Assembly (NCBI GenBank): GCA_964510945.1
Contig: CAZEED010000005.1
Location: forward strand, 4,132 to 68,131
DNA length: 64,000 bases
Source: an uncultured Candidatus Saccharibacteria bacterium
GTDB lineage: Bacteria; Patescibacteriota; Saccharimonadia; Saccharimonadales; JAGQNJ01
Direction: 5' to 3'
The notes beneath the pieces were generated by a model, which saw only the letters and a program-made list of their open reading frames with translations, was not told the DNA's origin and searched no databases. Below, one piece after another: positions 1,683-46,140 of this stretch; the first letter of the stretch is position 1; each line of letters starts with the position of its first letter. The translations under genes were made by a program, and so were the position numbers.

Positions 1683-3181
1683 TTTAGTTGCCTAGAATTA
1701 GCGTTATTCTTTAGATATTTTGTCAGTATAACGGCTTTTGACTTACCTACCACCTTTTCTAAATCCTGCAGATCGGCATCGACTATTTGTTTGGTCGAGC
1801 CAAAATGTTTTAACAACTTTTTGCGAGTTGCTGGCCCAATACTAGGTATTCCATCCAAGATGCTAGTTGTCTGACGTTGACGCTTTAGTACGGTATGATA
1901 ACTGACGGCAAACCTATGAGATTCGTCGCGGATTCGCTGAAGCAACTTAACAGCGTTTGAGCTTTTATCAAGCTCTACTTTTGTAAAATCTTCAGTTTTT
2001 GTTATGTAAGCCGACTTTGACGGATTAAGTCCCAAGAATTCATTAGTTTCGAGCACTATCTCTTCTTCTCGTTTGGCTAGTCCAATCATTGGTATCGCAT
2101 TAAACCCTAAAGTATCACGTGCCAAACTGGCCGAGCTCAACTGGCCTTTCCCCCCATCGATTAAAAATAGATCTGGTTTTCCCCACTTTTTGATATTTTT
2201 TGGTGATAAACGGCGACTTATTACTTCGTTCATATGGGCAAAGTCATCATTTCCTGGCCGAATCATCTTGAACTTACGATACTCTGCTTTGTTTGGCATG
2301 CCATTGCTAAACACCACCATACTAGCCACCGTATCTGTCCCGCTCATATGGCTAATGTCATAGCCCTCGATGCGTTTGGGTACTTTTTTTAAGCCAAGTA
2401 GTGACGTGAGTTCGCTCAAACCTACATCCTTACTAATATCCATAAATTCTTGACGACTAAACACTATGCTTTTCTTAAGGCCCTTTAGTGCAAACAACTG
2501 ATTTCGCAGACGCGAGGCCAACTCGTAATCTTGGTTTTTGGCAGCTCGCTTCATATCCAGCTCTACCTCATTAACTATTGATACGCGATTCCCCTTGATA
2601 TAACTAATGAGTTGACGGAGGTTCTTTCGATAATCCTCTAGAGTGGTCTTCCCTTCTTCTAAACCCGGACAGAGCCCGATTTGATACATCAAACAAGCTC
2701 GTTTTGGTATCGCGCCAGTGTGAGTTGAGTACGGAAAAGCTTTGCGCAGTTGTTTTAAGGCAACGCGAATCAAAACCGAGTTAAAATATGGACCAAAATA
2801 CTCCGCCCCGTCATCCAATGGCCGACGAGTAATAGTAACTGTCGGGTGATCACTTTTAATATCTATTCTGATGTAGCTGGTACTCTTATCATCACGAAGC
2901 AGTATGTTATATCTAGGCTGATAGCGACGAACTAGTTCTGCTTCTAAAAACAATGCATCAATCTCTGTTTCGACAGTAATGTTGTCTAGATCTGCTATTT
3001 CTTTAACCAGCGCAGTTGTTTTAGGGTCATATGGCCGGCTTTTTTGAAAATATTGTCGTACTCGGTTTTTTAGTACTGCGGCTTTACCAACATAAATAAT
3101 CTGCCCCGAAATATCCTTATACAAATAAACACCCGGCTCTTTCGGCAATTTAGCTAATTTGCCTTTCAGTTGCGCATTCAT
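1679..3181 (-). CDS. uvrC: Excinuclease ABC subunit C (compact, 500 aa)
   Basis: N-terminal GIY-YIG (GVYLYKD..IIYVGKA..LKNRVRQY), UVR motif (DYELASRLRNQL) and C-terminal HhH2 (GIPSIGPATRKKLLKHFGS). 4-nt overlap with pepP. Confidence 0.9.
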   Translation of the reverse strand: MNAQLKGKLAKLPKEPGVYLYKDISGQIIYVGKAAVLKNRVRQYFQKSRPYDPKTTALVKEIADLDNITVETEIDALFLEAELVRRYQPRYNILLRDDKSTSYIRIDIKSDHPTVTITRRPLDDGAEYFGPYFNSVLIRVALKQLRKAFPYSTHTGAIPKRACLMYQIGLCPGLEEGKTTLEDYRKNLRQLISYIKGNRVSIVNEVELDMKRAAKNQDYELASRLRNQLFALKGLKKSIVFSRQEFMDISKDVGLSELTSLLGLKKVPKRIEGYDISHMSGTDTVASMVVFSNGMPNKAEYRKFKMIRPGNDDFAHMNEVISRRLSPKNIKKWGKPDLFLIDGGKGQLSSASLARDTLGFNAIPMIGLAKREEEIVLETNEFLGLNPSKSAYITKTEDFTKVELDKSSNAVKLLQRIRDESHRFAVSYHTVLKRQRQTTSILDGIPSIGPATRKKLLKHFGSTKQIVDADLQDLEKVVGKSKAVILTKYLKNNANSRQLK

Positions 3182-4074
3182 TTTTTGATTTTAGACATCT
3201 TAGGCGCAGACTTAACGCAATCGGCGCACAGGGTTTTCTTTTTGCAATTTTCGCACATTAGCACAAGTCGGTTGCATGATACTTTTGCGCAATTTTCATA
3301 ATTACTAGTTTTGTCCTGGCAATGCGTACACTTGCCAATATCAACAGACTTGTCTGAAAATCGATGCGTCATTCTATCGTCAAAAATATGTAGCGCACCC
3401 TCCCACAATCCTTCATCGCCGTATTTTTCACCGTATTTAACTATTCCTCCATCCATCTGATATACGTCAGTAAAACCCCTATTTTTCATGAGGGTTGTGA
3501 GGATTTCGCATCTCACTCCACCAGTACAGTAGGTTACTACTGGTTTATCCTTGATATCGTTATATTTATCGCTCGATATTTCCTTGACAAAGTCATGTGT
3601 AGTCTTGGTATCAGGAACCACCGCATTCTTAAACCGACCCACTGCCGCCTCATATGCATTACGGCCGTCAAAAAATACTACCTCATCGCCTCGTTCTTCA
3701 ATTAGTTTGTGTAGAGCTTCTGGCTTAAGATGCTTTCCGCCATTTTTGACCCCTTTTTCATCTACTTCGATCTCTTCTGGTGCACCAAAAGCCACTAATT
3801 CTGGTTTAACCTTAACGCTGAGACGCGGAAATTCTTCCCCGTTACCTTCGCTCCACTTGTAGGTAATTCCCTTAAATAATACCGAGCGATTCATCTCGCG
3901 TTTATATTCGCGCAAATTCTCGATATCGCCACCTAATGTGCCATTTATTCCCTGGTGGCTTACGATAATCCGCCCTTTCAGTCTTAACCGACTGCATAAC
4001 TCACGTTGCCAACGCATGGTAATGCTGGGGTCGCTAACAGGAACAAATTTGTAGTATAAAATCACCTTGTTCAT
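3178..4074 (-). CDS. trhO: Rhodanese-domain protein TrhO/YceA (UPF0176, tRNA U34 hydroxylase family)
   Basis: ILYYKF N-terminus, rhodanese active-site loop CTGGVRCE and a C-terminal Cys-rich tail. 4-nt overlap with uvrC. Confidence 0.8.
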   Translation of the reverse strand: MNKVILYYKFVPVSDPSITMRWQRELCSRLRLKGRIIVSHQGINGTLGGDIENLREYKREMNRSVLFKGITYKWSEGNGEEFPRLSVKVKPELVAFGAPEEIEVDEKGVKNGGKHLKPEALHKLIEERGDEVVFFDGRNAYEAAVGRFKNAVVPDTKTTHDFVKEISSDKYNDIKDKPVVTYCTGGVRCEILTTLMKNRGFTDVYQMDGGIVKYGEKYGDEGLWEGALHIFDDRMTHRFSDKSVDIGKCTHCQDKTSNYENCAKVSCNRLVLMCENCKKKTLCADCVKSAPKMSKIKK

Positions 4075-4180
4075 CCCTATATTTTACCAGATTATCCCTG
4101 TTAAGTATTCTTTTACTTAACAAATATTCATGTATTTTAGTATTGTTATTTTTAATATGTATGTTATAGTATATGCATAT

Positions 4181-5602
4181 ATGGAGAGAAGACACCTGAT
4201 TACAAATTTAGTTGCTGGGACTGCAGCTGCGACTGCTGCATTTCATATGGCTTATGATCCACCCCAAATCCACTGGGGACCAGAACGTGAAACACATACT
4301 GCCGAATACGACGAGACAAGTTACGGCTTTCCTTTAAGGATTGCACCAGACGGGATAGAGACAGACCTATTTGCATCATCTGAAGCGTCCCCAATACCAT
4401 ATGAGGCAATAACCAATATGGAGGCTAATCCAACTACTGGCGGCTTTGATCGATACGACATGCAATCACTTGCAGATACACTTCGATACTTAAGCAGAAG
4501 TAATTATAGCCAATATCGTATAGTAATTACGCCCCACATCTCCGCTGAAGACAATAGCGGTAGTGCTGACGGCGGTATATCAACGGAAAGTTTAAGTAAT
4601 CTCGCTATAGCCGAGCTAAAAGGTCAAGAAATGGCTGACTTTATCCGAACCACTGCCGGCGAACTTGATTTAGATCTCCCACTCATCCAAGTACAAGAGT
4701 CAGAAGAACAATTAATCTCTGATCAATCCACTATGTGGGACGGCGAAACAATTATTAAAGACCAACTTGACTATCTGGTAGGTGAATTTGGTTATGACAA
4801 CCCTAATGACATGATCCGTAGATGGCGCCAGGCCCCGGCCGATGCACCACCTGAAGTCCGCACTACGCTTCGCTCAATTTTTAACGGTCAATCATTTGTT
4901 GATGTAAAAATTCTGACCCCAGAAGAAGAAGTTTGCCAAATCACCATTACTCATCACAAAGATGTAGTTGAGAGAGAGCGGGATAATGAATATCCTCTAC
5001 CAGTCGCGATTCCTGGATATTTGCCAGTCGTTGGTGCAGCCGCGTTACTCAGTGCAGGATTGCGAAAAAGAACTTCAGATAACGGTACACCACGTGAACC
5101 GAGACCACCTAGAGAGAGTCGTACAGTACCGTATAGTGGAGTATCCGGACCTGGATTTGGTGGCTCTAGTAGATTCGGCAGACGAAGGCGAAGCCCATAT
5201 CGTAACCGATATTCAGGCAGAGCCCACAACAGAAGTGTCGATTATCGTCGTCACAACCAAGATAACTCCAGAAGGCTAAGAAAAATAGGTGCATGGGTAG
5301 CAGGTACGGCATTAGTGCTTGGACTTGGATATCTAGGGGCCGAAAAATGGAATGATACTACACTAACCAGCGATGGTACTTGCGTAGACATCCATAAACA
5401 GCCAAACACATGGGGTGTATCAATACACCCACATATTGGTGATCAAGAATGCTCCGGTACAACCGCAGCACCCGACTACACCCCACCTCGTCAAAACTCT
5501 GATCCTTGTAGATACCTACCACAAGAAACAGTTGATGGTGGGACTATAGTACGAAGATTTGAAGACGGCGAATTAAAAAGCACTCAAGTCGTAACCCCAT
5601 AA
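4181..5602 (+). CDS. Hypothetical multi-TM protein with an Arg-rich disordered loop and a Cys-containing C-terminal domain
   Basis: The ORF track begins at 4130, but ATG 4181 (MERRHLITNL) avoids an implausible hydrophobic leader. Three predicted TM segments. Loop sequence RKRTSDNGTPREPRPPRESR..GRRRRSPYRNRYSGRAHNRS. No recognisable domain. Confidence 0.55.
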   Translation: MERRHLITNLVAGTAAATAAFHMAYDPPQIHWGPERETHTAEYDETSYGFPLRIAPDGIETDLFASSEASPIPYEAITNMEANPTTGGFDRYDMQSLADTLRYLSRSNYSQYRIVITPHISAEDNSGSADGGISTESLSNLAIAELKGQEMADFIRTTAGELDLDLPLIQVQESEEQLISDQSTMWDGETIIKDQLDYLVGEFGYDNPNDMIRRWRQAPADAPPEVRTTLRSIFNGQSFVDVKILTPEEEVCQITITHHKDVVERERDNEYPLPVAIPGYLPVVGAAALLSAGLRKRTSDNGTPREPRPPRESRTVPYSGVSGPGFGGSSRFGRRRRSPYRNRYSGRAHNRSVDYRRHNQDNSRRLRKIGAWVAGTALVLGLGYLGAEKWNDTTLTSDGTCVDIHKQPNTWGVSIHPHIGDQECSGTTAAPDYTPPRQNSDPCRYLPQETVDGGTIVRRFEDGELKSTQVVTP

Positions 5603-5634: not shown

Positions 5635-6756
5635 TCAGACGTAGCCTCCGCTACCGTGATTTACTTTTCTGTAAATTCGATCATATAGTCGATTAGCATC
5701 GCCTTTGGTTAAAGTTTTTTCTAAATGCCTGAGGGTAATCCTAACTAATACATTTTTCTGTTTAGGTAAAATACCTAATCTATCTTGAATCTTTTTTGGT
5801 AAATCCGCGTAAGCTGTTTCGTCGAGCACTTCTACGCTTTCCAGCACATCAACTTCATCGCCAAGAGCAATGCGAATATACTCATTTATGTCTTCTTCTA
5901 CATAGTTCTCTGGAACACTATATGACATATCTCGCCTTATAGCTGGTTGATTAGAAACCTCTCGATACGGCTTTAAATCTTTCATTTGACGGGCGATCTT
6001 TGGATTTGTCGATCTCAAATAACGTATATCTGGAATTGATTTTAGCGTCATTACTAACCTATCTAATCCAATACCTGATGCCCAGCCAGAATAAACTTTC
6101 GGATCCAGCCCAGCATTTGCTAGTATTTTTGGGTTAATCAGGCCACATTCCATGATCTCAATATCGCGGTCTTCTTTGACAGCGTTGACTTCCATCCCTT
6201 CGGTCGTATAGGGATGTGGCATGTCAACAATCCGCAGTTTCCAGCCAGGCGCAGCCACCTTTGCTATCCCTTCCACTACGCCTTTCAAATCCTGCCTCAC
6301 AATTTGTTTATTTTTGCACACGCGCCAAATACCTAGCATATGAATAGCAGACAAGTGTTTTTTGTCAGTCACATCGCGTCGATAGACAACTGCAGGCGTT
6401 AAAATTACCACGTCATCCCAATCATCTCGTTTCGCTAAATCCCGTAATATTCCTGGGATATGGGCCGTATCGTGCGTACGTAAAATGTGTGTCTCGTCGA
6501 CATAATGCGTGTAGGTAGACGAACGGCTGATATTATCCTTATCTATCAGCAAATTGTCGTAATTGTCCTCGACGCTAACTATTGGGCTACCCCGATATAC
6601 CATAATTTGACTGCTGGGGTGACTTGCTCGAATATAGTCCTCAATTTTTTGGTACAACAACTTTACCGCATGCGGTTCTTTCGAATCTGTTAAATCCGGT
6701 ACGGCTAGATACCTTTCTAGTACCTCTTTGTCGATTGGTTCTATATACATTTTCAT
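5635..6756 (-). CDS. Single-chain PheS-like class II aminoacyl-tRNA-synthetase homolog fused to a C-terminal FDX-ACB (anticodon-binding) domain
   Basis: - PheS-like core: RTHDTAHIP, motif-2-like VVYRRDVTDKKHLSAIHMLGIW, HPYTTEGMEV..IEIMECGLINPKILANAGLD, motif 3 SGWASGIGLDRLVMTLKSIPDIRYLRS.
- C-terminus matches the FDX-ACB pattern: DMSYSV..LESVEVLD..VLVRITLRHLEKTLTKGDANRLYDRI.
- Start taken at MKMYIEP (6756), 1 nt after the upstream stop. Confidence 0.75.
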   Translation of the reverse strand: MKMYIEPIDKEVLERYLAVPDLTDSKEPHAVKLLYQKIEDYIRASHPSSQIMVYRGSPIVSVEDNYDNLLIDKDNISRSSTYTHYVDETHILRTHDTAHIPGILRDLAKRDDWDDVVILTPAVVYRRDVTDKKHLSAIHMLGIWRVCKNKQIVRQDLKGVVEGIAKVAAPGWKLRIVDMPHPYTTEGMEVNAVKEDRDIEIMECGLINPKILANAGLDPKVYSGWASGIGLDRLVMTLKSIPDIRYLRSTNPKIARQMKDLKPYREVSNQPAIRRDMSYSVPENYVEEDINEYIRIALGDEVDVLESVEVLDETAYADLPKKIQDRLGILPKQKNVLVRITLRHLEKTLTKGDANRLYDRIYRKVNHGSGGYV

Positions 6757-6757
6757 T

Positions 6758-7000
6758 TTATTTCCACCAATCCCAAGGTCGGCCCACCATCTCATCTAGC
6801 GACCGTCCCTTGGCCCACGCATCATTAGCAGGTTCTGTGGCTATATCTATAGGCTCGTCGGGTGGGTTAACCAAAACTTCTGGCCCCTCCAGCATGGCTT
6901 TACCTAAATTTTGCGCCATCAGCGGCTGTACACATCTTAAGCCTCGCCCAGATTCGCCAATACACATATTTCTAACTCGTTCTCCGTTAATTTCACTCAT
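6758..7000 (-). CDS. Small hypothetical protein (80 aa) with C-terminal GRPWDWWK tail
   Basis: AAGGAG sits 6 nt upstream of the ATG at 7000. The stop TAA (6760-6758) is 1 nt from the ATG of the PheS-like gene, so the two are translationally coupled. No recognisable domain. Confidence 0.55.
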   Translation of the reverse strand: MSEINGERVRNMCIGESGRGLRCVQPLMAQNLGKAMLEGPEVLVNPPDEPIDIATEPANDAWAKGRSLDEMVGRPWDWWK

Positions 7001-7033
7001 AATTTTCTCCTTAGTCTAAATATTTTCAAATAC

Positions 7034-7079
7034 AAAAAAACCGCCCAGGAGTGATTCCCCTGGGCGGTTTTTGTTTTTT
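7034..7079 (-). terminator. Rho-independent terminator, structurally bidirectional
   Basis: Stem ccgcccagg (7041-7049) pairs with cctgggcgg (7059-7067) around a 9-nt loop. An A-run (7034-7040) and a T-run (7068-7079) flank it. It lies downstream of the 169-aa gene on the minus strand. Confidence 0.75.
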
Positions 7080-7120
7080 AGCAATACTTAAACCAGCCGA
7101 GAATCACTCCTGGGCTGCAT
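7041..7120 (-). promoter_or_regulatory. Attenuator-like element: terminator, competing 15-nt antiterminator and 10-codon uORF
   Basis: 7101-7115 (gaatcactcctgggc) is the perfect reverse complement of 7043-7057 (gcccaggagtgattc). That stretch covers most of one terminator arm (7043-7049) and most of the loop (7050-7057). The uORF ATG 7120 to TAA 7088 (MQPRSDSRLV) overlaps the upstream competing segment. Confidence 0.5.
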
Positions 7121-7253
7121 AAATGAAATTCCTGATTGGTTAGCGTGCTTTATCATAGCTACACCAAAATATCACAACACAATAAGTTTGTCAAACAATA
7201 TTTATGCTTACGTGTCAATTATTCTAGTACTAGCCAACCGTGTTATTACCTTA

Positions 7254-7763
7254 TTAGTATCGACGCACAGCCGCTTCTAGAGACTGTTCATAGAGTTCCC
7301 AGGCTCTGTCAAAGTCAAATCCCACTTCGATGGCATAATCGTCTCCTGCCACCCGCAAATAATGATTTGCGTCTGTTTCTGCAAGAATCCCCTGAGTGTC
7401 AAAGTATGCATCAAACAATGACCTAATTGTGACTTCATGATCTTGGCCAGCAACGCTACGCTCATATATACCCGTAGCTATGCCGATTTGATTGGCGATT
7501 GCGTCTTTTTGTTTGTCAGGCAACTCTTGGCCTACCTCAGGACTATCAACTAACCCGATTAATCTTGTTAACGTTCTCTCTACCGCCGACTGTTCTTCAA
7601 ACGGCTTCTCAATAATAATTCGGGCTCTCTTCGCAACGTCTATTCGCGCCTTGCCGTTTCCTGTCAATAATTCTGCAGGTGTAATGTGCCCGACATATAT
7701 GGCGCTGTCCGTACCTAATGCTTCTTTGATTTCTTCAACGCTTAGTCTTATTGATTCACTCAT
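7254..7763 (-). CDS. Hypothetical protein (169 aa)
   Basis: Intact ORF with coding-like composition, second gene after the riboswitch-like leader. No recognisable domain. Confidence 0.6.
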   Translation of the reverse strand: MSESIRLSVEEIKEALGTDSAIYVGHITPAELLTGNGKARIDVAKRARIIIEKPFEEQSAVERTLTRLIGLVDSPEVGQELPDKQKDAIANQIGIATGIYERSVAGQDHEVTIRSLFDAYFDTQGILAETDANHYLRVAGDDYAIEVGFDFDRAWELYEQSLEAAVRRY

Positions 7764-7787: not shown

Positions 7788-8030
7788 TTAGTAATTTGAT
7801 AGATTGCGACGCCGATACTCGTCGCGAAGCGCAACCACGAAAGCTCCACGAGTACTAACCCAGCCTGGGTTACCGCGATCTTTTTCTCGTGTCTGGATTA
7901 ACTCCTCATCAGTCAAACACTGAAATCTCTCTGTAAACCGCTCGTATTTTTGCGCTAGAGTTTCTTGTACTTCTGAGTCCAATGGTGTCTCTATATGTTC
8001 CGGTGTTATCGGATATTCTTCTTGACTCAT
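7788..8030 (-). CDS. Hypothetical small acidic protein (80 aa)
   Basis: AAGGAG lies 8 nt upstream of ATG 8030. First gene after the SAM-I-like leader. No recognisable domain. Confidence 0.55.
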   Translation of the reverse strand: MSQEEYPITPEHIETPLDSEVQETLAQKYERFTERFQCLTDEELIQTREKDRGNPGWVSTRGAFVVALRDEYRRRNLSNY

Positions 8031-8062: not shown

Positions 8063-8209
8063 AAAAACCAGCAGAAAATGCTGGCTATCAAGTAATTTTG
8101 TGCATCATATCTGTCCCCTTTCATAGGGCGAGAATTGGCACCGTGGCTATTAAAGCTCGGTTGCCGGCGGTATCATTGGGCTCGATCCCTACTCCGCACT
8201 CGCAATATT
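8063..8209 (-). promoter_or_regulatory. SAM-I (S-box)-like riboswitch with intrinsic terminator
   Basis: The minus-strand RNA reads AAUAUU-GCGAG-UGCGGAGUAGGGAUCGAGCCCAAUGAUACCGCC-GGCAACC-(P3 insert)-GGUGCCAAUUCU-CGCCCUAUGAAAGGGG-ACAGAUAU. This matches the conserved S-box core blocks GGAG.GGGA, GCCC.AUGA, GGCAACC, GGUGCCAAUUC and AGAU.
It is followed by the hairpin AGCCAGCA-UUUUC-UGCUGGUU (8068-8084), a U5 tract, then the RBS. Confidence 0.6.
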
Positions 8210-8244
8210 AGTTGTTAAGTAACCACATTATACCAAATAATTTA

Positions 8245-10773: not shown

Positions 10774-12561
10774 ATGACAAAATTTAAATCACAATCTAAC
10801 GTCAAACAAACTATTAGTTTGTTCTGGCACCACGCGACTCAGTACAAGAGATTTCTTGTGCCTATGATTGTATTGGTTCCAATCGTAGTTATAATTGGCG
10901 AATTTATCGAACCGATAATCATATCGAATGTATTACAACAAATAAGTAGTAGTAATTATGATGTCAATAATTTATGGGCAAGCTTTGGCAGTTCTCTAAT
11001 CTATTACGCTATGGCGGTAATCGCCAGTGGGATCATAGGCTGGCGTCTAGTTATATACTGCTTGTGGAACCTTGAACTTAACGTAGTTAGAGATATTAGT
11101 AATAAAATATTCTCGCACTTAATGCGGCTAAGCCCTAGTTTTCATGCTAACAAATTTGCCGGCTCACTCGTCTCGCAATCAAATAAGTTGACTGGGGCAT
11201 ACGTAAGATTCACTGACTCCACTCTATTTAACCTATATACACTAATTATTTCGTTAATCGCTACTATCGTAATACTGGCACCTAGAGTGCCGTTGTACGC
11301 CGCTACAATGGTTATATTTTCAATATTGTACATTATTGGTACTTTTCACTTTGCAAGACCTGTTCGCGAAGCAAACACAAAAGAAGCCGAAGCTGAAAGT
11401 CGTCAGACTGGATACTTAGCTGACAGTGTATCTAATGTGATGGCGGTTAAAGGCTTTTCACGATCAAATTTTGAAATGAAAAGATACTGGGACATCACAT
11501 CTCACACTAGAAAAATGGGCCAAAATTCCATGCGTGCGACCATGATTAGAGAATCGTTTTCTAGTGTGATAACATCTTCAATTGCGATAGCCGCTTTGCT
11601 CATTGCAATACTAGGCGTTAAATATTTGTCAATTGATATTGCTACGCTGTTCCTAATGGTAAGTTTTACAGGTTCGCTCGGCCAAAGGTTGTGGGAATTT
11701 CAAAACGTATTACGTCAATATAACCGAGCTTTTGGTGATGCTAGCGATATGATCAAAATCCTTCAAATCAAGCCAGAAGTAGCCGACCCAGTCCGTCCAG
11801 AAACAGTAAAAATGAACCGTGGAGGAATCGAATTTAACTCCGTTACTTTTGCTCATGATGAGGACAAGGACACCTTGTTCCATAATCTCAATCTTTACAT
11901 TAAACCAGGCGAAAAAATTGGCCTAGTTGGCCATTCTGGATCTGGTAAAACGACACTGACAAAACTCTTGCTTCGGTTTATGGATATTGATGGTGGTGAA
12001 ATCACAATCGACGGTCAAGATATTACCGCAGTTACCCAAGATGATCTTAGGGACAAGATTACCTATGTTCCACAAGAACCTTTGATGTTTCATCGCAGTA
12101 TTGCTGAAAACATCTTGTATGGTAATCCCAAGGCCTCTGAACAACAGCTCAAAGCTGTAGCAAAAATGGCTCATGCCCACGACTTTGTCGAAAAACTTCC
12201 TAAGCAGTATGACACCCTAGTAGGAGAACGAGGTGTCAAATTATCTGGTGGACAACGACAGCGTATCGCAATTGCTCGAGCTATGATCAAAAATGCACCA
12301 ATATTAGTACTCGACGAAGCTACATCTGCACTTGATAGCGAAAGCGAAGTGCTAATTCAGGACGCCCTTTGGAAACTAATGGAAGGCCGAACAGCCATTG
12401 TTATAGCACACCGATTAAGCACGATTCAAAAAATGGATAGGATAATCGTTCTGGATGAGGGTAAAATCGTAGAAGAAGGCACGCACAAAGAACTGATTAG
12501 AGCCAAAGGTACCTACGCCGGTCTATGGAACCATCAAACCGGCGGCTTCTTAGAAGAATAG
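10774..12561 (+). CDS. ABC transporter, fused permease/ATPase exporter (MsbA/ABCB type)
   Basis: N-terminal six-TM domain, Walker A GHSGSGKTT, signature LSGGQRQR, Walker B ILVLDEATSALD. GGAGG RBS. Confidence 0.9.
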   Translation: MTKFKSQSNVKQTISLFWHHATQYKRFLVPMIVLVPIVVIIGEFIEPIIISNVLQQISSSNYDVNNLWASFGSSLIYYAMAVIASGIIGWRLVIYCLWNLELNVVRDISNKIFSHLMRLSPSFHANKFAGSLVSQSNKLTGAYVRFTDSTLFNLYTLIISLIATIVILAPRVPLYAATMVIFSILYIIGTFHFARPVREANTKEAEAESRQTGYLADSVSNVMAVKGFSRSNFEMKRYWDITSHTRKMGQNSMRATMIRESFSSVITSSIAIAALLIAILGVKYLSIDIATLFLMVSFTGSLGQRLWEFQNVLRQYNRAFGDASDMIKILQIKPEVADPVRPETVKMNRGGIEFNSVTFAHDEDKDTLFHNLNLYIKPGEKIGLVGHSGSGKTTLTKLLLRFMDIDGGEITIDGQDITAVTQDDLRDKITYVPQEPLMFHRSIAENILYGNPKASEQQLKAVAKMAHAHDFVEKLPKQYDTLVGERGVKLSGGQRQRIAIARAMIKNAPILVLDEATSALDSESEVLIQDALWKLMEGRTAIVIAHRLSTIQKMDRIIVLDEGKIVEEGTHKELIRAKGTYAGLWNHQTGGFLEE

Positions 12562-12568
12562 TCTATTT

Positions 12569-13399
12569 TTAGTTGTCGTTCTCGTTGTCGTTTTCGTTAT
12601 CTTGTTGGTCTTGGCTGTTTTTGTCGTTGTCTTCATTTTCTTCTTCATCATCATTGTCATCATTTGAATCTTGCTGATCTTCGTCTGAATCATCTTCAGA
12701 ATCATTAGATTGCCTAGATCCGCGCTTGTCGTCCTGTCCATCATCCTCAAATTCATCATCGTTTTTATCTGCATCGTCGTTGCTGTCGCTATCTTCAGAT
12801 TTATTAGAGTCATTCTTGGAATTCTTGGTTCTTGTCACGCCACCGTTTTCTGCATTTATATCCACTCTAAATCCATCAGTGAAACGAACGCTATAAACAA
12901 CAACACCGTCTTCTACTTCAAGTTCTATTTTTCTAACCTGACCATCATGTTGTTCTAGAGCCGTTTTTAATGCAGCGGCAAAATCTATCTTTAAATTCTG
13001 TATTTTCGAAACCTCTTCATCATCATTTTCGTCATCTTCAATCTTAGTTACGTAGGTACCATCAGTAGCGTTAATGACGATAACTGATCCGTCGCTAAGT
13101 TTTGCTTCGTAGACTAGCACGCCGTCCTCGTTCTTTAGTTCTAGATCAACGATAGTTAAGCCTGGAGCTTGTTCGTCAACTATAGTTTTAAGCCGATCAA
13201 CATCAATTATTCCACTCAAATCATTTGGCAGAGGCTCGATTTTTACTACTTCACCAGGATTAACTGCACTATTAGATACGTCTGTTCGCGCATCATAAAC
13301 CCGCCAACCAATAAAGCCAACAAGACCAACTATTACCGCAATCATTAATATTTCTACTGGGCCAACAACCCCTTGTTGATCTTTTATTAACTTATTCAT
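12569..13399 (-). CDS. Membrane-anchored tandem PepSY-domain protein with long D/E/N/S-rich tail
   Basis: N-terminal TM segment. Two PepSY-like repeats (LVYEAKLSDGSVIVINATDGTYV; VVYSVRFTDGFRVDINAENGGV). The C-terminal ~85 aa are low complexity. Confidence 0.75.
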   Translation of the reverse strand: MNKLIKDQQGVVGPVEILMIAVIVGLVGFIGWRVYDARTDVSNSAVNPGEVVKIEPLPNDLSGIIDVDRLKTIVDEQAPGLTIVDLELKNEDGVLVYEAKLSDGSVIVINATDGTYVTKIEDDENDDEEVSKIQNLKIDFAAALKTALEQHDGQVRKIELEVEDGVVVYSVRFTDGFRVDINAENGGVTRTKNSKNDSNKSEDSDSNDDADKNDDEFEDDGQDDKRGSRQSNDSEDDSDEDQQDSNDDNDDEEENEDNDKNSQDQQDNENDNENDN

Positions 13400-13670
13400 A
13401 GATGTGTTCTTCCTTTTTATATAATTTTTTGTAGCATAAGCATTTTATCATAATACTTTTGTACACGAAACATTAATCGATAATGATTTATTAAAAGGAT
13501 TAGAGTAAAAGATTTAGCAAAACTCTGGGCGTAACGCTATAGAACGTTGGAATAGTGTTTTATCTCCAAGTAAATCTAGTAAATCTGGGTCAGTAACATC
13601 CACCATTTGTTGTTTAGCCCATAAAAGTTCGCCCATCGCGCTGGTCGCGCTTTCGTCAATCAGAAAAAGG

Positions 13671-14357
13671 TTAGTCTGTTGTATCGGTATCTGGTTTTTG
13701 CTCAGATTCGCCTTCGGCTGGTGTTTCGCCCTCACCGCCCTCAGCACCTTCTTCGCCTTCAACTTCTTCTGCAGCAGCTTCTTCAATTGCCGCCCTAGGT
13801 GCTTCTACTGTAACAATCGTCTTGTCAGCTTCATCGAGTATTTCAACACCTTCAGGTAGATCGATGTCGCTAACGTGTAGCTTATCGCCCACTTCGGCTA
13901 GTTTTGAGCCGTCGACAGTTAGTTTTTCGACTAGTTTACTTGGGATAGCTTCAACTTCTAGATTATCAACCACCTTTATTACCAATAATCCATCGCGTTC
14001 GGCTGGGATTTGCTCATCACCATGCACAATCTCGATCTGGACTTCGGCTTTAACTTTTTGGTCTTTTTTAATCGCACCAAACACCACATGACGAAGCTGG
14101 TTCTTTTTTGGTTCAAAATCAACTTCTTTAATCATGGTCAGATAATCGGTATCGCCGACTTTAACATTAATCGGATTATGCTTACCGGCACTGTTATACG
14201 CCCTCACCATCTCTAAATAATTTCCGCTAACATTAATAGAATCATTGCCTGGATTATGGATCACAGCCGGTATAAGACCTTCACTCTTTAGCTTGTTCAA
14301 ACCTTTTCTAACAACTTCTCGTTTTTGAAGCGTTAAACTAATATCTTGATTACTCAC
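13671..14357 (-). CDS. rplY: 50S ribosomal protein L25 / general stress protein Ctc
   Basis: N-terminal L25 signature (REVVRKGLNKLKSEGLIPAVIHN), beta-barrel repeats and an acidic E/A-rich tail. Confidence 0.9.
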   Translation of the reverse strand: MSNQDISLTLQKREVVRKGLNKLKSEGLIPAVIHNPGNDSINVSGNYLEMVRAYNSAGKHNPINVKVGDTDYLTMIKEVDFEPKKNQLRHVVFGAIKKDQKVKAEVQIEIVHGDEQIPAERDGLLVIKVVDNLEVEAIPSKLVEKLTVDGSKLAEVGDKLHVSDIDLPEGVEILDEADKTIVTVEAPRAAIEEAAAEEVEGEEGAEGGEGETPAEGESEQKPDTDTTD

Positions 14358-45752: not shown

Positions 45753-46140
45753 TGGTGGAGCTGCGGAGAATTGCACTCCGGTCCGCTGGATTATCTTTGT
45801 TAGTCTTCTACAGGCTTAGTCTATTTAAATTTATCTTAGAAGAGTTATATATAAAAAGACAAAACAACAACTCCTCGCATATCTTATGGTTTCTTTGTAA
45901 AACTACAGATAAAAAGTTTTACGCAACCAGATGATATGACACGCTAGCAATGCTATCTGACGTCACTTTGCGCGTGGCTTTAGTTAAACTAAAGCTGGTG
46001 CTAGCTTAGGCATTTGGAAATTTCCAAAAGCTGCAACTAGCTGTTTTTTAACATTTGCAGTTAAAATTGTTGTCTATACGCTGACAAGCGACCTGCTGAT
46101 CTAACTGATAAAGTCCTACGTCGAGCATAATTTCAGCCCC
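45753..46140 (-). ncRNA. ssrA: tmRNA (SsrA)
   Basis: - 5' end GGGGCUGAAAUUAUGCUCGACG.
- 3' end CGGAG-UGCAAUU-CUCCG-CAGCUCC-ACCA.
- Acceptor stem carries a G3:U pair.
- Candidate tag ORF resumes at GCA 46058. Its stop UAA (45986-45984) sits in the loop of hairpin GCUUUAG-UUUAA-CUAAAGC. Confidence 0.93.

Follow-up and report, generated by a model that had tools for sequence, protein, structure and literature searches.

Does a single-chain relative of phenylalanyl-tRNA synthetase (PheRS), encoded on a contig of an uncultured Candidatus Saccharibacteria bacterium (CAZEED010000005.1, assembly GCA_964510945.1), charge tRNA with phenylalanine, and if so, why would it be kept alongside the canonical enzyme? 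We addressed this question within a 64,000-nucleotide stretch of the contig (hereafter the window). An earlier note, based on the sequence alone, had described an open reading frame that joins a PheS catalytic core to an FDX-ACB domain, as in monomeric mitochondrial PheRS, without the bacterial PheS coiled coil and with a diverged motif 2, and had inferred that its substrate or activity may differ from Phe-tRNA charging. The observation was confirmed. The interpretation was only partly supported, since the architecture and the separation from ordinary PheS held, whereas a change of activity is not what the new evidence points to.

We first verified the gene. The open reading frame, on the minus strand, is listed as 5635..6795 (386 aa), but homologs are 371-378 aa and begin MKMYIEPI, such that the start at 6756 (Met14 of the long frame), as given in the earlier note, is the right one. 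The strings picked out in that note (HLSAIHMLGIW, GWASGIGLDRLVM, IEIMECG and RITLRHLEKTLT) are all in the translation. A Pfam search, one of the checks the note had proposed, returned tRNA-synt_2d and FDX-ACB on one chain and no hit to the PheS N-terminal coiled-coil family (PF02912). Among NCBIfam models, the bacterial PheS model TIGR00468 scored 89.9 bits (cutoff 237.45) and the mitochondrial model TIGR00469 pheS_mito 161.5 bits (cutoff 258.35), while NF051887, "PheS-related mystery ligase SrmL", scored 412.9 bits (cutoff 300; E = 1e-123) over profile positions 2-348 of 349. Distant members from other phyla also pass this model, at 341-396 bits. The protein has the complete sequence signature seen in diverse members, namely LRT(H/Q)TS, YRRDxxDxxH...H(Q)xDxW, HPYT, ExECG and G(L/W)AxGxGLDRLxM followed by an FDX-ACB tail, with M140 and G142 in motif 2 being specific to its lineage. 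The model only names the family, with no function attached, and we found no paper on SrmL or on a Phe-free PheRS in the literature searched.

The predicted fold agrees with this assignment. The AlphaFold2 model (pLDDT 94, pTM 0.90) superposes on human mitochondrial PheRS in the closed state (3CMQ; TMq 0.79, rmsd 3.3 Å), whereas bacterial PheS chains cover only the catalytic half (TMq about 0.55). Human mitochondrial PheRS (FARS2; PDB 3CMQ, 3TUP) is the best fold match over the whole chain and also the best sequence match in the PDB (1e-27), though at only 24% identity, and likewise has no editing module and no coiled coil. Differences in motif 2 and the pocket remained after alignment to 3CMQ: F155 is I138, Q157 is M140, E159 is G142, F232 is H181 and F234 is Y183. 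Phe232, Phe234, Gln157 and Glu159 are canonical Phe-binding residues (PMC5521548). FARS2-like proteins keep FHQxE and FPFT and have 5.7% Phe, while SrmL has (I/P)H(Q/M)x(D/E/G)xW, HPYT and ExECG. The residues that read G34 in human mitochondrial PheRS (Asp364, Phe366 and Ser375; PMC7540514) are not conserved, as the window protein has Asp312 (Ser in 99 of 121 homologs), Thr314 and Asn335, and most Saccharibacteria have Ser and Thr at the first two positions.

We then assessed amino acid composition and found that the protein contains no phenylalanine in 373 residues, against 3.65% Phe across 44 window ORFs, of which none of the other 43 has zero (P about 9e-7). Of 120 Saccharibacteria homologs, 106 have no Phe and 14 have one, and 34 high-GC members have 6 Phe codons in total. 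Members in 29%-GC and 70%-GC genomes are also Phe-free, and members in 29-37% GC genomes have no Phe while their neighbours have 1.5-12.6%. Phe is the only strongly depleted residue (ratio 0.01, the next lowest being Cys at 0.52), although some SrmL subfamilies are not Phe-depleted. Much of what looked like motif divergence is Phe replacement (FPF to HPY, GWAFG to GWASG, motif-2 F to I), but this does not account for Q157 to M or E159 to G.

The region upstream of the gene has the layout of a leader-peptide attenuator, with each element listed in Table 1. Homologous SrmL loci are denoted here by L numbers. The uORF is conserved in close relatives (L003-6, MIMRSKQSAISFMQPRSDSRLV; L001, ..SNSFMQPRSDSRLV), and more distant Saccharibacteria carry analogous uORFs with 2-6 Phe codons (3-6 codons, in runs of 2-4, in four more distant loci), including FF, FFNF, FFFGNF and FFFFGFF. 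The same TTGACA...TAnnnT arrangement precedes the uORF in L004, L001, L098 and L094, although the number of promoter-like sites in the region is no higher than in shuffled sequences. Thirty-two high-GC leaders show the same F-x-x-P-(P/R) pattern, with a rare TTT that is invariant in 32 of 32 and preceded by the rare codon CGA in 24 of 32, and their start codon is always in frame with spacing that varies by whole codons. Translation of the leader is inferred from these patterns.

Table 1 Predicted features of the SrmL locus in window coordinates.
Position	Strand	Feature	Basis
7166..7194	-	Sigma-70-like promoter: TTGACA, 17-nt spacer, TATTTT with an upstream TG	Consensus scan, 10 of 12 matches with TG extension
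7088..7156	-	Near-leaderless leader-peptide uORF, MIKHANQSGISFMQPRSDSRLV* (22 codons)	Read from the sequence and found by a uORF scan
7121..7123	-	Single putative regulatory Phe codon (TTT, codon 12), followed by M-Q-P-R	uORF scan and comparison of leaders
7090..7116	-	Antiterminator strand (3' half of the uORF), pairing with the terminator 5' arm, loop and 3' arm	RNA folding
7029..7072	-	Intrinsic terminator: 16-bp GC-rich stem and 5-nt loop (7072-7036) plus a U7 tract	Terminator scan; hairpin energy -27.5 kcal/mol
6758..7000	-	Small ORF (80 aa) with its own RBS, no Phe and a Trp-rich C-terminus (..GRPWDWWK); stop codon 1 nt before the SrmL ATG	ORF list and sequence; no Pfam or NCBIfam hit
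5635..6756	-	SrmL coding sequence (373 aa plus stop), a Phe-free, single-chain PheRS paralog	NF051887 and Phe content
5986..6654	-	Class II PheS-type catalytic core (tRNA-synt_2d)	PF01409, 6e-30; Foldseek matches to PheS and mitochondrial PheRS chains
6319..6384	-	Motif 2, YRRDVTDKKHLSAIHMLGIWRV	Aligned to 3CMQ residues 142-162; Arg126 corresponds to the motif-2 arginine (Arg143) and is invariant in the family
6205..6216	-	HPYT, replacing the FPFT substrate-recognition strand	Alignment to 3CMQ; H181, Y183 and T184 invariant across the family
6049..6093	-	Motif 3, YSGWASGIGLDRLVM	Alignment; G228, G230, R233 and M236 invariant
5659..5955	-	FDX-ACB (ferredoxin-fold anticodon-binding) domain	PF03147, 35.8 bits (GA 31.1); superposes on the anticodon-binding domain of 3CMQ in the whole-chain match

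Folding in silico indicated that the terminator and antiterminator are alternatives. The minimum free energy of the naked leader was -45.2 kcal/mol (z = -3.9, 0 of 200 shuffles as good), and this fold contains the antiterminator helix rather than the terminator, with the duplex alone at -35.8 kcal/mol. With a ribosome stalled at the Phe codon, the terminator 5' arm is fully paired to the antiterminator strand before the 3' arm is made (-16.6), while with a ribosome at the stop codon the arm is free. At full length, however, the terminator is thermodynamically favoured even with a ribosome stalled at Phe (-31.4 vs. -17.0 kcal/mol), so antitermination would have to be kinetic. Five of the independent Saccharibacteria leaders were folded, and in each the uORF segment downstream of the Phe codons pairs with the terminator 5' arm when the ribosome is placed at Phe, but not when it is at the stop codon. 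Among high-GC leaders only about 8 of 33 have a clean U-tract terminator, masked folding was inconsistent, and duplex energies were no better than those of shuffled controls (median z = 0.1), in sequence so GC-rich that it pairs too easily for the test to discriminate. No T-box motif was found upstream of SrmL, no Rfam family was found at E ≤ 1 in 11 high-GC loci, and only sub-threshold leader-like hits fell on the window leader, with the Phe_leader model at 16.6 bits (GA 55).

Taken together, we favour, with moderate confidence, the hypothesis that SrmL is an auxiliary, monomeric, editing-free PheRS of the mitochondrial (PheRS-M) architecture that can be made and used when Phe-tRNAPhe is scarce. 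In this view, transcription starts about 400 nt upstream of the gene and the uORF is translated; when charged tRNAPhe is plentiful, the ribosome would run to the uORF stop codon and cover the antiterminator strand, allowing the terminator to form, whereas a ribosome stalled at the Phe codon would let the 3' half of the uORF pair with the terminator 5' arm, such that RNA polymerase reads through into the small ORF and srmL. Since neither downstream protein contains phenylalanine, both could be translated with no Phe-tRNAPhe at all, and SrmL would then restore or boost charging of tRNAPhe. At 373 residues it compares with roughly 1000 for canonical alpha+beta, which carry about 36 Phe. The sequence itself establishes the architecture, the family membership, the Phe-free composition, the leader ORF with its Phe codons and the terminator/antiterminator alternatives, while the direction of regulation, the response to limiting charged tRNA, the Phe-tRNAPhe ligase activity and the identity of Phe and tRNAPhe as substrates are inferred.

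Conservation of the active site is consistent with adenylate formation. Across 40-43 diverse members, the motif-2 Arg126-Arg127-Asp128, motif-3 Arg233, Glu189 and Glu200 are invariant, the two glutamates aligning by motif pattern, in our own comparison with residue numbers in PMC8136816, with the acidic residues contacting Mg2+ in M. tuberculosis PheRS. Ala226 is also invariant and by motif pattern sits where canonical PheS has the specificity alanine (E. coli Ala294 / T. thermophilus Ala314; PMC3275996), and His95 and Thr/Ser97, corresponding to human His119/Ser121 that anchor the substrate amino group (PMC5521548), are kept. On the other hand, the two Phe side chains that recognise the substrate ring in bacterial and mitochondrial PheRS are His and Tyr in SrmL, and a pocket Gly is an invariant Glu (Glu203). 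This does not exclude Phe as substrate, as human cytosolic PheRS has Asn/Tyr/Asn at these positions (PMC8136816). The motif-2 Phe at the position of human F155 is Ile/Val/Leu in Saccharibacteria and mostly Pro elsewhere in the family, and in the lineage of the window protein Gln157 to Met and Glu159 to Gly remove two water-mediated contacts to the alpha-amino group, such that substrate identity remains an inference.

That canonical PheRS is present in this genome is inferred from relatives. Canonical pheT-pheS lies directly beside SrmL on one contig in L032, and looks quite different from it, and canonical pheS and pheT are present and essential by Tn-seq in a cultured Saccharibacterium (PMC10633639 supplement). 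The cultured Saccharibacterium ML1 appears to lack SrmL, which is thus dispensable there. In L091, six tRNA-Phe genes lie immediately upstream of SrmL.

Related regulation and composition have precedents. The pheST operon of E. coli, encoding an (alpha-beta)2 enzyme of the same superfamily, is controlled by the pheM leader peptide with Phe codons and alternative antiterminator and terminator hairpins; SrmL is a separate paralog of monomeric type that lacks the beta subunit's editing and tRNA-binding modules and is itself free of Phe. Auxiliary synthetases that are kept silent and switched on when charging of the cognate tRNA falls include S. coelicolor trpRS1 (ribosome-mediated attenuation through a leader peptide with cognate codons; indolmycin resistance), B. 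subtilis thrZ (T-box) and Anabaena ThrRS T2 (zinc limitation) (PMC4787780). Those paralogs have the architecture of the housekeeping enzyme and are not described in the sources we read as lacking their cognate amino acid, while SrmL has a different, reduced architecture and a near-absolute exclusion of the cognate residue. Depletion of an amino acid in proteins needed during starvation for it has been described as a statistical bias in biosynthetic enzymes and in the "Down-Trp" persistence proteins of Chlamydia (PMC4209129, PMC3937554), whereas here exclusion is total (0 of 373) in a tRNA synthetase paralog and is repeated across phyla. Neither the Phe-free composition nor the Phe-codon attenuator appears in the name of the NCBIfam model or in any paper retrieved.

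Among alternatives, the one we rate highest, although we consider it unlikely, is that SrmL responds to Phe-tRNAPhe shortage with altered specificity, loading tRNAPhe or a dedicated tRNA with a different, near-cognate or non-canonical amino acid to relieve stalling at Phe codons or to feed a tRNA-dependent side reaction. The family-invariant changes to His, Tyr and Glu203 make the pocket polar, the lineage of the window protein also has Gln157 to Met and Glu159 to Gly, there is no editing domain, L091 carries two sequence types of tRNA-Phe(GAA) beside SrmL, and L021 has two divergent SrmL paralogs side by side. Against this, Ala226 is invariant, the human cytosolic enzyme is Phe-specific despite its Asn/Tyr/Asn pocket, the His/Tyr substitutions are what a ban on Phe residues would produce anyway, and the 64-kb window holds no tRNA genes. 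A more specific version, which is doubtful but not excluded, is that loading of tRNAPhe, or of a tRNAPhe-like species such as the odd copies in L091, with a substitute amino acid lets translation continue through Phe codons during Phe famine, which would be a programmed, starvation-specific recoding system found across several bacterial phyla.

It is similarly unlikely that SrmL is a non-translational ligase that modifies a peptide, a small molecule or a tRNA base, with the FDX-ACB domain re-used for another partner, by analogy with GluQRS, PoxA and amino acid:carrier-protein ligases. In favour of this reading are the "mystery ligase" name, the non-conserved G34-reading residues, the small Phe-free protein predicted to be translationally coupled to SrmL in the window, a Patescibacteria subgroup (L007-L013) in which SrmL sits next to radical SAM/SPASM, GNAT and amidohydrolase genes and a small upstream ORF, and a weak PP-loop (TilS-like) neighbour in L017 and L021. 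However, clustering of neighbours in 80 or more loci, together with a separate check of Pfam contexts, revealed no neighbour conserved across the family, and TrhO adjacency holds only in close relatives. A single-protein scan of genome contigs returned only 3 loci. Homologs of the small ORF occupy the same position in L001, L003-6 and L098, all Phe-free, but it is absent in L002, L094 and L096 and the 81-aa ORF of L007/L018 is unrelated, which rules it out as a universal partner. A Phe-consuming side reaction would also make little sense behind an attenuator that turns on when Phe-tRNAPhe is short, Phe-free composition is the signature expected of a protein needed to relieve Phe-tRNA starvation, and the whole PheRS-M fold, including the closed domain arrangement, is kept in the predicted structure. 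That SrmL is simply the housekeeping PheRS, a bacterial monomeric enzyme that has replaced PheS/PheT, is very unlikely, since, although no other PheS/PheT homolog lies in the window and the protein is 66-89% identical across Saccharibacteria, canonical pheST adjoins SrmL in L032, the cultured Saccharibacterium with essential pheS and pheT carries no second PF01409 or PF03147 gene, and a housekeeping enzyme would not be kept off by an attenuator whenever Phe-tRNAPhe is plentiful.

If the favoured reading is right, a large and widespread family, with at least 4,298 proteins matching at E ≤ 1e-20 from Patescibacteria, AT-rich genomes and many high-GC soil bacteria, and at present annotated only as a mystery ligase or mis-annotated as PheS alpha chain, would gain a concrete, testable function. 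Making PheRS needs Phe-tRNAPhe, which is an autocatalytic trap, and a synthetase stripped of its own cognate amino acid and switched on by hungry codons for it would escape that trap. In practical terms, a second PF01409 gene can inflate contamination estimates for Saccharibacteria genome bins, and an editing-free, structurally distinct PheRS could blunt PheRS-targeting antibiotics. It would also show that the one-chain "mitochondrial" architecture is common in bacteria, which bears on where mitochondrial PheRS came from. Bit scores suggest that the catalytic core of SrmL is about equally far from bacterial PheS (67-72 bits) and from FARS2 (35.8 plus part of 61 bits).

The minus-strand open reading frame encodes a 373-aa protein if started at Met14 (position 6756), and this start is supported by homologs of 371-378 aa that begin MKMYIEPI. 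Pfam searches identified a PheS-type class II core (PF01409, 6e-30) and an FDX-ACB domain (PF03147, 35.8 bits, GA 31.1) on the one chain, with no coiled-coil N-terminal domain. An AlphaFold2 model built on 43 homologs was confident (pLDDT 94, pTM 0.90) and superposed over its whole length on human mitochondrial PheRS in the closed state (3CMQ, TMq 0.79), while bacterial PheS chains matched only the catalytic half. The earlier note's observation, a PheS core and FDX-ACB joined in one chain of mitochondrial type with a diverged motif 2 and no bacterial coiled coil, was therefore correct in every particular.

We next assessed family membership using curated profiles. NCBIfam holds a dedicated equivalog model, NF051887 'PheS-related mystery ligase SrmL', which the protein exceeds (412.9 bits, cutoff 300), while it falls below those for TIGR00469 pheS_mito (161 bits, cutoff 258) and TIGR00468 pheS (90 bits, cutoff 237). 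The family is large. We found 744 hits around the query, the top 120 all at 66-99% identity, and the organism names attached to a few of them are all Candidatus Saccharibacteria/Saccharimonadales or unclassified 'bacterium' MAGs. There were 126 clusters at 50% identity with E < 1e-30, and at least 4,298 proteins at E < 1e-20 with a family profile, including other Patescibacteria, AT-rich genomes on 0.4-2 Mb contigs and many high-GC soil contigs. Distant members still pass the SrmL cutoff, and our literature searches found no paper on the family. Among representatives from the cluster search, the metagenomic single-chain proteins P0203, P0221 and P0252 keep a largely canonical PheRS active site (FHQxDG, FP(Y/F)T, mostly GWAFG), with P0203 scoring 214 bits to human FARS2 over the whole chain, and are true PheRS-M-type enzymes of possibly non-mitochondrial origin.

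SrmL is a paralog and probably not the housekeeping enzyme. Although the window holds no other PheS/PheT-like ORF, a metagenomic contig (locus L032) carries SrmL directly beside a canonical pheT-pheS pair, and the cultured Saccharibacterium Southlakia epibionticum has canonical pheS and pheT, both Tn-seq-essential, with no second PF01409 or PF03147 gene (PMC10633639). One contig (L021) has two divergent SrmL paralogs lying convergently side by side, one with 6 Phe and the other with 14.

Coordinates of features in the window and at loci carrying SrmL homologs
Sequence	Feature	Coordinates	Strand
Window	ORF encoding SrmL	5635-6795	-
Window	Promoter-like site, TTGACA-17-TATTTT with an upstream TG	7194-7166	
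Window	22-codon uORF	7156-7088	
Window	16-bp terminator with a U7 tract	7072-7029	
Window	Phe-free 80-aa ORF, preceded by an RBS	7000-6758	-
Window	SAM riboswitch (RF00162)	8104-8211	-
Window	Hypothetical gene (80 aa)	7788-8030	-
Window	Hypothetical gene (169 aa)	7254-7763	-
Window	490-aa ORF convergent with srmL	4130-5602	+
Window	TrhO (tRNA U34 hydroxylase)	3178-4074	-
Window	tmRNA gene	45753-46140	-
L091	tRNA arrays flanking SrmL	6779-7708 and 10781-14202	
L021	SrmL paralog	1190-2314	+
L021	SrmL paralog	2371-3606	-
L007	Neighbourhood of SrmL	2000-4640	
L026-L086 (34 loci)	Conserved leader	124-209 nt upstream of SrmL	

The active site was compared with that of human mitochondrial PheRS by alignment, with residue roles taken from PMC5521548 and PMC8136816. 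The adenylate-forming machinery is intact and family-invariant, comprising Arg126-Arg127-Asp128 in motif 2, Arg233 in motif 3, and Glu189 and Glu200, which in our own comparison with the residue numbers in PMC8136816 align by motif pattern with the acidic residues that contact Mg2+ in M. tuberculosis PheRS. Also kept are His95 and Thr/Ser97, which contact the alpha-amino group in the human enzyme, and an invariant Ala226 at the position where, by motif pattern, canonical PheS has its specificity alanine (PMC3275996). The differences are F155->Ile, F232->His, F234->Tyr, a pocket Gly->Glu203 and, in this lineage, Q157->Met and E159->Gly, whereas most Saccharibacteria have Met/Glu at the last two positions and the wider family has Gln/Asp. 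Human cytosolic PheRS also has Asn/Tyr/Asn at the three pocket positions, such that these changes do not by themselves exclude Phe as substrate.

We found that the window SrmL has no phenylalanine in 373 residues, while the 44 window ORFs of at least 150 aa average 3.65% Phe and none of the other 43 has zero (P about 9e-7). Of 120 Saccharibacteria homologs, 106 have none and 14 have one; 34 high-GC members have six Phe codons among them; and members in 29-37% GC genomes have zero while their neighbours have 1.5-12.6%. Phe is the only strongly depleted residue (ratio 0.01), while Tyr and His are enriched. The trait is not shown by every subfamily, as some have up to 24 Phe. Phe replacement accounts for much of the 'motif divergence' (FPFT->HPYT, GWAFG->GWASG, RFLKQF->KIARQM and motif-2 F->I). 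The earlier note's interpretation was only partly supported, in that the architecture holds but the new evidence does not point to its suggestion that the substrate or activity may differ from Phe-tRNA charging.

The window itself also carries a predicted Phe-codon attenuator. Downstream of the preceding gene, a promoter-like site is followed after about 10 nt by the uORF, which encodes MIKHANQSGISFMQPRSDSRLV and has one TTT codon, and then by the terminator, the small ORF and, one base later, srmL. The uORF's 3' half is complementary to the terminator, and in the naked leader the antiterminator helix wins (MFE -45.2 kcal/mol, z = -3.9, 0 of 200 shuffles as good), with a duplex energy of -35.8 kcal/mol against -27.5 for the hairpin. 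In folding with a ribosome placed at the uORF stop codon the terminator's 5' arm is free, while with a ribosome stalled at the Phe codon the 5' arm is already fully paired to the uORF (-16.6 kcal/mol) before the 3' arm is transcribed. At full length the terminator is still the more stable state in the stalled case (-31.4 vs -17.0), which indicates that antitermination would be kinetic, as in the E. coli trp attenuator. The small co-transcribed protein has an acidic middle and a Trp-rich tail (RPWDWWK), with homologs only in some Saccharibacteria (L001, L003-6, L098) and no family hit.

The predicted attenuator recurs with unrelated sequences at other SrmL loci. Each leader is followed by a terminator-like hairpin with a T-rich tail, and most are preceded by a recognisable promoter-like -10/-35. 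In the five leaders that were folded (L004, L001, L094, L098 and L002), the segment downstream of the Phe codons pairs with the terminator's 5' arm when the ribosome is placed at Phe, and not when it is placed at the stop codon.

Leader peptides at other SrmL loci, with SrmL identity to the window protein
Locus	Identity	Leader peptide
L003-6	89%	...ISFMQPRSDSRLV
L001	85%	...NSFMQPRSDSRLV
L094	69%	MKAISSQAQNFFMTSSLGGLAGFTK
L098	75%	..AVFFFGNFIQAASPRT
L002	68%	MKTCSHNLFFNFILNPSRG
L096	66%	..SQSFFFFGFFAA

Among high-GC soil members, 34 of 56 loci with enough upstream DNA carry a uORF, and in 19 of them a strict -10-like hexamer lies 5-8 nt upstream of the start, so the uORF looks leaderless. This conserved leader has a CGA-TTT-A..CCC core and GC hairpins, and no Rfam family matches it at E <= 1 in 11 high-GC loci. 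The peptide consensus is ..R-R-F-x-x-P-(P/R)-x-P-x-G, and the start codon is in frame in 33 of 33, with spacing of 21, 24, 27 or 30 nt. The Phe codon is TTT in 32 of 32, while all six Phe codons in the SrmL ORFs of these loci are TTC, and it is preceded by CGA in 24 of 32, although CGA makes up only 5% of Arg codons in the same loci. Only about 8 of these leaders have a clean U-tract terminator, and pairing statistics were not significant there. The same F-x-x-P-(P/R) peptide motif occurs in the window's AT-rich leader, which hints that the nascent peptide itself may matter.

Other evidence is circumstantial. In L091, a 29%-GC contig, SrmL sits immediately downstream of an array of six tRNA-Phe(GAA) and six tRNA-Gln genes, and further downstream are Asp, Arg, Met and His tRNAs, the tRNA-His array flanking a 201-aa HisRS N-terminal fragment. 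The tRNA-Phe copies fall into two sequence types, three bacterial-like and three AT-rich with an unusual D-arm. No tRNA gene lies anywhere in the 64-kb window.

These observations fit one picture, in which a PheRS-type enzyme with an intact catalytic core and an anticodon-binding domain would be kept off while Phe-tRNAPhe is plentiful, would be switched on by ribosome stalling at Phe codons, and is itself translatable without any Phe-tRNAPhe, at one third the size of canonical alpha+beta, which carry 14 + 22 Phe in L032. This is what one would design as an emergency or restart PheRS. Auxiliary synthetases switched on by poor charging of their cognate tRNA are known, such as S. coelicolor trpRS1 and B. 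subtilis thrZ (cited in PMC4787780), and depletion of the cognate amino acid in starvation-response proteins is also a described bias (PMC4209129, PMC3937554). We favor this reading with moderate confidence, as the domain architecture, family assignment, residue composition and leader elements come from the sequence analysis, while the enzymatic step and the direction of regulation are inferred. Altered amino-acid specificity is an unlikely but possible alternative, a non-translational ligase slightly less likely still, and a role as the sole housekeeping PheRS is very doubtful given the canonical pheS and pheT found beside SrmL in L032 and the essential pheS and pheT of S. epibionticum. The finding is more interesting than the earlier note could see, but for a different reason. 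Since the family is already catalogued it is not categorically new, but total exclusion of the cognate residue combined with a predicted cognate-codon attenuator on a mitochondrial-type bacterial PheRS paralog appears to be undescribed, and it is directly testable.

The surroundings of SrmL differ between lineages. In the window, a SAM riboswitch (49.3 bits against GA 44.4) lies upstream of two hypothetical genes, neither with a Pfam or NCBIfam hit, both conserved next to SrmL in close relatives (L001, L004), which suggests a SAM-controlled operon in a Saccharibacterium. TrhO lies two genes from SrmL, here and in close relatives only. The convergent 490-aa ORF has no family hit and contains a very Arg/Ser/Pro-rich stretch (..GFGGSSRFGRRRRSPYRNRYSGRAHNRS..) followed by a predicted hydrophobic segment, while in close relatives a different 300-308-aa gene occupies this position. 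In one low-GC Patescibacteria-like subgroup (L007-L013), SrmL is next to radical SAM/SPASM, GNAT and amidohydrolase genes, with a class I LysRS also nearby in L012 and L013, and in L007 and L008 of this subgroup, as well as in L018 and L019, an 81-89-aa ORF sits directly upstream of SrmL.
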